DNA from: a virus | Taxonomy: Duplodnaviria > Heunggongvirae > Uroviricota > Caudoviricetes | Length of the DNA stretch: 6,413 bases | IMG/VR virus record: IMGVR_UViG_2534682295_000008 | Reading direction: 5' to 3' (one strand) | Part shown: in pieces, positions 4,702 through 6,196 of the stretch | Layout of the letters: each line of letters begins with the position of its first letter | How positions within the stretch are numbered: the first letter of the stretch is position 1 | Position numbers and translations under genes: made by a program | Notes under the pieces: generated by a model | Databases searched by the model: none | The model's input: only the letters and a program-made list of their open reading frames with translations | What the model was told of the DNA's origin: nothing

Positions 4702-6196
4702 TCTTTCACACATTATTGCCGCAGCATTCAATGAACCGCTGCTTCTGGAGCCCGCCTATGCGCGGGTTTTCTTTTGCGCGCTCGGGCGCGAGATGGGGGC
4801 AGCAAGTCTTTCGGTACCACAGCAGCAGGTACAGCTTGATGCTCCCGGAATGCTGGCTGAAACGGACGAGTACATGGCCGGAGGTAAACGACCGGCCCGT
4901 GTTTACCGGGTGGTGAACGGTATTGCTGTACTGCCGGTGACCGGCACGCTGGTGCACCGGCTGGGGGGTATGCGGCCATTTTCCGGAATGACAGGCTATG
5001 ACGGCATTGTCGCCTGTCTTCAGCAGGCAATGGCGGATAGCCAGGTGCGGGGCGTACTGCTGGACATTGACAGTCCGGGCGGGCAGGCCGCCGGCGCGTT
5101 TGACTGCGCTGACATGATTTACCGCCTCCGTCAGCAGAAGCCGGTCTGGGCACTGTGCAATGACACGGCCTGTTCTGCAGCCATGCTGCTGGCGTCGGCC
5201 TGCTCCCGACGGCTGGTTACCCAGACATCCCGTATCGGCTCCATTGGCGTGATGATGAGCCATGTCAGCTATGCCGGTCATCTGGCGCAGGCCGGTGTGG
5301 ATATCACGCTGATTTACTCAGGGGCGCACAAGGTGGATGGCAATCAGTTTGAAGCCTTACCGGCAGAGGTTCGCCAGAACATGCAGCAGCGCATTGATGC
5401 GGCGCGCCGGATGTTTGCCGAAAAAGTGGCCATGTTTACCGGTCTGTCTGTTGATGCCGTCACGGGAACAGAGGCCGCCGTTTTTGAAGGTCAGTCCGGC
5501 ATTGATGCCGGGCTGGCGGATGAATTAGTCAATGCGTCGGATGCCATCAGTGTGATGGCCACGGCGCTGAACAGTAATGTCAGAGGAGGCACTATGCCGC
5601 AATTAACTGCAACGGAAGCCGCCGCGCAGGAGAACCAGCGAGTGATGGGGATCCTGACATGCCAGGAAGCGAAAGGACGTGAACAGCTTGCCACGATGCT
5701 GGCAGGACAACAGGGCATGAGCGTTGAACAGGCCCGGGCGATTCTGGCCGCGGCGGCACCGCAGCAGCCGGTGGCATCCACGCAGAGTGAAGCCGATCGC
5801 ATTATGGCGTGTGAAGAAGCGAACGGTCGTGAACAACTGGCGGCAACGCTGGCGGCGATGCCGGAGATGACGGTGGAAAAAGCCCGCCCGATCCTGGCTG
5901 CTTCACCGCAGGCGGATGCCGGACCCTCACTCCGTGATCAGATCATGGCACTGGATGAGGCAAAAGGGGCTGAGGCGCAGGCTGAACAGCTGGCTGCCTG
6001 CCCGGGAATGACTGTGGAGAGCGCCCGGGCTGTGCTGGCTGCGGGATCAGGTAAGGCAGAACCGGTCTCTGCATCCACAACCGCCCTGTTTGAACGCATC
6101 ATGGCGAACCATTCACCGGCTGCGGTACAGGGTGGCGTGCCACAGACGTCAGCAGACGGTGATGCGGACGTGAAAATGCTCATGGCCATGCCATGA
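4691..6196 (+). CDS. C: Head maturation protease / scaffold fusion (lambda gpC-like, S49 ClpP-like serine peptidase N-terminal part; Nu3-like scaffold C-terminal part)
   Basis: 501-aa ORF with GTG start at 4691 and GAGGAG about 10 nt upstream. The N-terminus aligns to lambda gpC (AAFNEPLLLEPAYARVFFCAL vs MAFNEPLMLEPAYARVFFCAL). Peptidase core is conserved: NGIAVLPV.GTLV, GMTGY.GI...LQQA, GAFDCAD.I.R.R..KPVWAL.ND..CSA..LLASA.SRRLVTQT.R.GSIGVMM.H, ITLIYSG.HKVDGN, TGLSV, IDAGLADELVN. The C-terminal part contains three tandem copies of a scaffold-type repeat where lambda has one clear copy, so the ORF is about 60 aa longer than lambda gpC. Confidence 0.92.
   Translation: MRRNLSHIIAAAFNEPLLLEPAYARVFFCALGREMGAASLSVPQQQVQLDAPGMLAETDEYMAGGKRPARVYRVVNGIAVLPVTGTLVHRLGGMRPFSGMTGYDGIVACLQQAMADSQVRGVLLDIDSPGGQAAGAFDCADMIYRLRQQKPVWALCNDTACSAAMLLASACSRRLVTQTSRIGSIGVMMSHVSYAGHLAQAGVDITLIYSGAHKVDGNQFEALPAEVRQNMQQRIDAARRMFAEKVAMFTGLSVDAVTGTEAAVFEGQSGIDAGLADELVNASDAISVMATALNSNVRGGTMPQLTATEAAAQENQRVMGILTCQEAKGREQLATMLAGQQGMSVEQARAILAAAAPQQPVASTQSEADRIMACEEANGREQLAATLAAMPEMTVEKARPILAASPQADAGPSLRDQIMALDEAKGAEAQAEQLAACPGMTVESARAVLAAGSGKAEPVSASTTALFERIMANHSPAAVQGGVPQTSADGDADVKMLMAMP

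Follow-up and report, generated by a model that had tools for sequence, protein, structure and literature searches.

We analyzed a 6,413-nucleotide (nt) stretch of phage DNA, the IMG/VR record IMGVR_UViG_2534682295_000008 (in the following, the window is this whole stretch), and focused on the gene at 4691-6196 together with a second gene that is nested in frame within its 3' part. A six-frame list of open reading frames (ORFs) led to a lambdoid head operon, and the order of the genes, from the terminase to the start of shp, matches the one expected for such an operon (terminase, W, portal, protease/scaffold, decoration, major capsid). When 4691-6196 was compared with phage records by megablast, phage 21 (M81255.1 and OL657228.1), ev017 and several Escherichia coli prophage-derived phages matched along its entire length with 98.6-98.7% identity. 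By its sequence, the window belongs to the phage-21 type of head operon and shares about 98.6% identity with phage 21. It very probably carries the overlapping head genes 5 and 6 of this type, the counterpart of lambda C/Nu3, with internal initiation at position 5594, which is the lambda position. The C/Nu3 arrangement is textbook lambda biology, and the nested scaffold gene is already known as well: for phage 21 it has been in GenBank since the early 1990s.

The internal start codon ATG 5594 (codon 302) is in frame with the 4691-6196 ORF and stands 4 nt past the Shine-Dalgarno (SD) hexamer AGGAGG. The motif AGGAGGNNNNATG occurs a single time in the window against 0.03 expected occurrences, and matches appeared in 5 of 200 shuffles, so the site is more than a product of chance. 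With an anti-SD duplex energy of -12.0 kcal/mol it takes rank 2 among the 375 start-like codons of the + strand and the first rank among the ATGs; the SD is stronger than that of every canonical gene start in the window. Additionally, its opening energy of 7.66 kcal/mol is the lowest of the 24 in-frame ATGs scored. The codon lies in a variable linker, about 10 residues beyond the end of the S49/SppA protease fold at amino acids (aa) 290-293. Both phage 21 records hold a nested coding sequence (CDS) that maps exactly to 5594-6196, in M81255 as gene 6, 'head-tail preconnector gp6' (AAA32344.1), and in OL657228 as 'scaffolding protein' (UMO75421.1). Both also annotate the ribosome-binding site (RBS), which maps to 5583-5588 of the window. 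The Gifsy-1 record cites a UniProt entry 'Head-tail preconnector protein GP5 [Contains: Scaffold protein GP6', and the exact 200-aa product was called on 95 public contigs. Position 5594 is hence the already annotated start of phage 21 gene 6, an ordinary and known feature. The initial annotation of the window, made from the letters, had proposed a nested in-frame Nu3-like scaffolding gene within a gpC-like gene, and this gene is indeed gene 6 of M81255 and OL657228. Its coordinates all proved correct (AGAGG at 5365-5369, in-frame ATGs at 5381, 5411 and 5594, AGGAGG at 5584-5589, a product of 200 aa). From the three starts that it offered, 5594 is supported, and 5381 and 5411 found no comparative support.

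The comparative analysis drew on 91 related loci, found in genomes, viral contigs and annotated phages; 80 distinct gene-5 homologues extracted from them (58-100% aa identity) were aligned by codon. The column of 5594 reads ATG in 78 of these 80. The two exceptions, L089 and L009, carry the SD and the ATG two codons upstream, and the signal is thereby kept in 80/80 homologues. AGGAGG-N4-ATG is kept in all lineages from lambda to Gifsy-1, and two more lineages have close variants of the SD+ATG. The hexamer and the 4-nt spacer stay unchanged although the encoded residues differ (VRGGT, DTGGT, ERGGT, SKGGD, TKGGN and KTGGT; in lambda LSGGR). Codon 298 ends in A throughout, independent of the amino acid that it encodes, and codon 299 is always GGA; elsewhere, invariant glycine columns use two to four codons in 17 of 17 cases. 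Codon 299 belongs to the 7 of 111 conserved four-fold-degenerate codon columns that show no synonymous variation. When we compared 27 in-frame ATGs across nine divergent lineages, a conserved strong SD was found only at codon 302, with a mean SD energy of -10.1 versus -0.2 to -4.8 at the other in-frame ATGs. The internal signal is under selection at the nucleotide level. The SD did not stand out in a sliding-window score of third-position conservation (rank 120 of 497) because two sequences are offset by two codons and the element spans only two to three codons; the per-codon and ATG-anchored analyses given above replaced it. As a negative control served the SD-like AAGGAGGT in the portal gene (4471-4478, dG -12.1), which lies upstream of an in-frame GTG at 4489 and an ATG at 4492. 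In the same genomes it decays at synonymous sites, to AAGGAAGT in phage 21 and to AAAGAAGT in others. We therefore ruled out an internal portal-gene start at ATG 4492 and regard AAGGAGGT as a by-product of the K-E-V codons.

The comparison with lambda needs a closer look, since the initial annotation had argued that the nested start may have moved relative to lambda. At the homologous column lambda has TCAGGAGGGCGAATG, that is AGGAGG, 4 nt, and the ATG at lambda 5342. This is the same place as 5594, and the start has consequently not moved. The premise that lambda Nu3 starts at QSRMDATRQ goes back to a 1982-era GenBank annotation (lambda 5132), and it was this outdated entry that misled the earlier reading. 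GenBank J02459 and RefSeq NC_001416 still give nu3 as 5132-5737 with 201 aa, and HK629 copies the 201-aa annotation. The Ile of the window (ATT, codon 235, QQRIDAARR) does align with the Met of the annotated lambda start. The site is not conserved, however; in the 80 homologues the column reads ATT 64 times, ATG 11 times, GTT 4 times and ATC once. Lambda 5132 has a poor SD (-6.9) and an opening energy of 12.6. The values for lambda 5342 are -10.8 and 7.8, and its SD is by far the best among the in-frame ATGs in C. The phrog_8399 profile has 131 positions and is matched end to end by the product that starts at lambda 5342; this 131-aa form was called on 165 contigs and the 201-aa form on 6. The comparative evidence points to 5342, and not 5132, as the start of lambda nu3. 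Ziegelhoffer et al. reportedly sequenced the N-terminus of purified gpNu3 in 1992 and placed the start at the Met of 5342, for a protein of 131 aa and about 13.4 kDa.

Table 1. Genes and sequence features of the window (dG, duplex energy with the anti-SD; rank among the 375 start-like codons).
Feature	Positions	Strand	Basis
Small terminase	513-1022	+	ORF list
Large terminase	ends 2922	+	ORF list
W-like gene	2906-3112	+	ORF list
Portal	3109-4701	+	ORF list
Putative RBS of gene 5, AGGAGA, about 9-10 nt before GTG	4676..4681	+	Mapped from M81255; dG -9.1, rank 21/375
Gene 5 homologue, gpC-like head protease plus scaffold domain, 501 aa	4691..6196	+	ORF; 98.6% nt identity to phage 21 gene 5; 59% aa identity to lambda C
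S49/SppA-like peptidase fold	4919..5569	+	Pfam PF01343; SppA PDB matches
Rejected candidate start, Met231, inside the protease fold	5381..5383	+	ATG confined to close relatives; SD not conserved
Rejected candidate start, Met241, conserved protease-domain residue	5411..5413	+	No SD
SD AGGAGG of the nested gene, spelled by codons AGA-GGA-GGC	5584..5589	+	Sequence; conservation; RBS annotation
Nested gene 6 homologue, scaffolding protein, 200 aa	5594..6196	+	Frame and stop shared with gene 5; annotated CDS
Tri1 box, first repeat copy	5661..5764	+	M81255 repeat_region; protein and DNA alignments
Tri2 box	5801..5911	+	M81255 repeat_region ('Tri box'); alignments
Tri3 box	5942..6055	+	M81255 repeat_region; alignments
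shp / D-like head decoration gene, 5' part, cut at about codon 41	6233..6354	+	Mapping to phage 21

We consider it very unlikely that the nested scaffold gene, or an added longer isoform, begins at 5381 (271 aa) or at 5411 (261 aa). Both positions are nearer than 5594 to the place where GenBank puts the lambda nu3 start, although the column of that lambda start is ATT, GTT or ATC in 69 of the 80 sequences. ATG 5381 has some features of a start site, namely a weak SD (AGAGG with an 11-nt spacer, dG -6.5, rank 43 of 375) and a fairly low opening energy (8.39 kcal/mol), and gene finders called its 271-aa product on 17 contigs. The ATG is present only in relatives with at least 93% identity; elsewhere the codon is TTT, TAT, TAC or CTG, it is gone in every lineage with at most 72% identity, and the SD is not kept either. 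The case of 5411 is the reverse. Its Met241 is conserved in 79 of the 80 homologues, but an SD is absent (dG -1.7, rank 243 of 375; +0.3 to -5.9 in relatives) and the opening energy is high (12.75 kcal/mol). Moreover, codons 231 and 241 both lie within the S49 fold, so that a product from either start would carry a protease fragment of 60-70 residues. That the 21-like clade additionally uses the clade-specific ATG 5381 for a longer isoform is a weaker possibility than the modular scaffold considered below.

One can also imagine that no internal initiation takes place, that a scaffold-sized fragment arises only by self-cleavage of gp5, and that the SD-like sequence is incidental or serves as a translational pause between the two domains. 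Proteases of the gpC type are processed during head maturation, as established for lambda, and such processing is what this explanation builds on. SD-like motifs do occur within genes by chance, and the portal motif at 4471-4478 is an example. A pause or a chance motif cannot explain, however, why an ATG is fixed 4 nt downstream in a linker of freely varying residues. The hexamer is nucleotide-invariant across all lineages, whereas the portal motif decays, and 5594 is the most accessible of the in-frame ATGs. We find this explanation hardly credible, even less so than a start at 5381 or 5411.

Several points weigh against internal initiation at 5594 as we read it. The homologues are phylogenetically related and fall into about nine distinct lineages, so the counts overstate the number of independent events. 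The GenBank features for phage 21 gene 6 are themselves labelled 'putative', phage 21 gp6 being a predicted protein. The lambda records still say 5132. Finally, the operon copy in the window is truncated. The match to phage 21 and its relatives breaks off within shp, with a junction at about 6354-6359 and an overlap of about 15 nt. The last approximately 69 nt (6345-6413) match the chromosomal cell-division gene damX at about 96% identity, in 5426 of 5426 complete E. coli genomes. The phage DNA ends at about 6354, where damX follows, and the major capsid gene was not seen in the window. Either a prophage remnant has been truncated at this locus, or the two parts form a chimeric join (assembly chimera). 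Productive infection may never express the scaffold from this copy. An experiment on the induced prophage, as suggested in the initial annotation, may not be feasible here, since the head operon breaks off within the decoration gene and runs on into damX.

The full-length gene 5 homologue begins with a GTG at 4691, and its first nucleotides (4691-4701) overlap the final 11 nt of the portal gene. The GTG start and the portal overlap are found in lambda and Gifsy-1 as well. By SD duplex energy, the GTG context is weaker than the internal site at 5594. The GTG and the overlap suggest a low-level, translationally coupled initiation of the protease, unlike the strong internal start. Pfam PF01343 (S49 peptidase) covers aa 146-293 (E = 2.8e-35), and the sequences of the SppA crystal structures PDB 3rst and 4kwb align to aa 77-290 (E about 5e-16). 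In these alignments Ser162 (5174-5176) pairs with the SppA nucleophile, the Ser of the AASGG motif, and Lys214 (5330-5332) pairs with position 144 of the 3rst chain, which is Ala in 3rst. We take the 3rst crystal construct to be a K199A mutant, and the role of Lys214 as the catalytic Lys is partly derived from this assumption. Ser162 and Lys214 are invariant across lambda, phage 21 and the window. From its sequence, the protein appears to retain the Ser/Lys catalytic dyad of the S49 family, with the Lys assigned partly on the assumption just named.

The C-terminal domain shared by both products is homologous to lambda Nu3, as seen in the alignment to the lambda C-terminus. The triplicated repeat described in the initial annotation is real: alignments show three copies of a repeat of about 45 aa in the C-terminal part. 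M81255 labels the three repeat features Tri1 box, Tri box and Tri3 box, with the remark 'function unknown; putative'. In protein alignments and in MAFFT DNA alignments the three boxes align with each other and with the single copy of lambda. Tandem Repeats Finder reported nothing in the Tri region because the copies are too diverged as DNA. The 200-aa product matches PHROG 8399 (phrog_8399), 'head scaffolding protein', with E = 8.5e-36 in three stretches, one per Tri box. A single-sequence AlphaFold model (AF2) of this product has moderate-to-low confidence (mean predicted local distance difference test, pLDDT, of 64; predicted template modelling score, pTM, of 0.30). In the model every Tri box takes the form of one long and one short helix, with connecting linkers of low confidence and no globular fold. 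Such a helical, non-globular model fits the usual character of scaffolding proteins.

The number of Tri boxes differs between relatives: one copy is present in lambda, phi80, PS3 and Sano, two in L073, three in the window, phage 21 and Gifsy-1, and four in L089. L073 represents a clean deletion of one unit and L089 has one extra unit. We can imagine, as a rather doubtful extension, that the nested scaffold is modular and gains or loses capsid-binding helix-turn-helix units by duplication and deletion, as a way of tuning their number. The conserved internal start would then always put the entire Tri-box array into the abundant short product. We also note that OL657228 annotates two matches to a 'CII binding site' pattern (TTGYN6TTGY) in gene 6. 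Both matches are present in the window, at 5599-5612 and 5833-5846 on the minus strand, and the first one overlaps the conserved codons directly after ATG 5594. The pattern is probably a chance consensus match because the TTG repeat is not kept in Trabulsiella or Gifsy-type relatives.

The observed sequence signals, the nucleotide-level conservation, the domain boundary and the identity with the annotated phage 21 gene 6 can be combined with the lambda C/Nu3 system into the following picture. Ribosomes that start at GTG 4691 would produce the 501-aa protein, in which a serine protease of the S49/SppA type precedes a helical scaffold domain. Other ribosomes would bind independently at AGGAGG 5584-5589 and start at ATG 5594, giving a 200-aa protein with the same sequence as the last 200 residues of the protease. 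This short protein, with its three helix-turn-helix-like Tri boxes and a C-terminal tail, would be the scaffold. Since the internal start is the stronger one, the scaffold is expected in excess over the protease. The protease would be drawn into the procapsid along with the scaffold because it carries the identical C-terminal domain. There, the full-length protein would act as the maturation protease, and scaffold and protease would both be removed after assembly. The scaffold function of the 200-aa product, the stoichiometry and the targeting of the protease are in this picture inferred from lambda C/Nu3.

The closest known system is phage 21 itself (M81255.1, 'Bacteriophage 21 head gene operon'; OL657228.1, CPT_21_05 and CPT_21_06), with 98.6% nt and 98% aa identity. 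It shares with the window the ORF length of 1506 nt, the position of the internal RBS and ATG, the three Tri boxes, the portal gene upstream and shp downstream. The two differ by a small number of substitutions, such as A/V in Tri2 and, close to the C-terminus, ALFERIM versus AMFEHFM, and the phage 21 operon is not cut in shp and joined to damX as it is in the window. Lambda C/Nu3 resembles the window in its S49 protease as the N-terminal part, in the in-frame nested scaffold with a shared C-terminus and in its position within the operon. Its scaffold domain has one Tri-box motif versus three in the window and an insertion of about 36 residues after the start; the product has 131 aa versus 200 aa.

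More distant phages show the same layout. In phi80 (52% aa identity to gene 5), in Marinobacter PS3 (43%) and in Xylella phage Sano (35%), an in-frame start is present just past the S49 domain, with one Tri-box-like motif downstream of each start. The start codons are 311, 300 and 308, and their SDs are TGGAGG (dG -9.3), GGAG and AGGAG. In phi80 (our locus L094, NC_021190) the nested gene is not annotated; codon 311 of ABF05_gp05 reads TGGAGGAACT ATG and would yield a nested scaffold of 137 aa, whose relative position matches that in phage 21 and lambda. Sano (KF626665) does have an annotated nested in-frame scaffold with its RBS right after the S49 domain (Sano_64, prohead protease; Sano_63, scaffold). 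It differs from the window by the low aa identity, a weaker SD (dG -6.9) and the single repeat. The Gp5 of the phiKO2/N15 type is a homologous S49 protease, 39% identical over aa 77-290, whose gene adjoins the portal gene. Unlike the protein of the window, phiKO2 Gp5 has 306 aa and is without scaffold tail or nested gene, and the capsid protein is annotated as N-terminally cleaved. A comparable principle is known from the herpesviruses. The UL26 protease carries the scaffold sequence at its C-terminus, and the more abundant scaffold UL26.5 is the in-frame C-terminal part, which is made separately and targets the protease into the procapsid. The herpesvirus system differs in its protease fold (assemblin) and in the origin of the short product: a promoter and a transcript of its own supply it, and no internal ribosome-binding site within a shared mRNA is involved.

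For genome annotation the conserved signal has a practical side. In thousands of E. coli prophages, automated annotation (PGAP) gives an 'S49 family peptidase' and overlooks the nested gene. AGGAGG-N4-ATG after an S49 domain offers a simple rule by which the nested gene can be annotated in lambdoid prophages.

A further conserved element came up near the 5' end of the protease gene. It is a block of 26 nt at 4751-4776 (CCCGCCTATGCGCGGGTTTTCTTTTG, codons 21-29, EPAYARVFFC), which corresponds to about 4487-4512 in lambda (188-213 of our lambda locus, L003). The block is nucleotide-invariant in 91 of 96 loci, including lambda, phi80, Gifsy-1, Trabulsiella and Providencia, at a protein identity of only 52-72%. 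The synonymous sites that flank it vary freely. The 26-mer was not called in a terminator scan, and an Rfam search of 4500-6413 gave only a sub-threshold chance match and left the 26-mer without an Rfam match. A recombination-breakpoint test showed a discordance in similarity that peaks near the block and is mostly explained by the hypervariable linker just downstream. The block reads as a short hairpin followed by a U-run, with an unremarkable folding energy (z = -0.8), and a hairpin built from other bases is kept at this position in Marinobacter PS3. The block may act as a terminator or RNA 3'-end element, attenuate translation or serve as a recombination linker.

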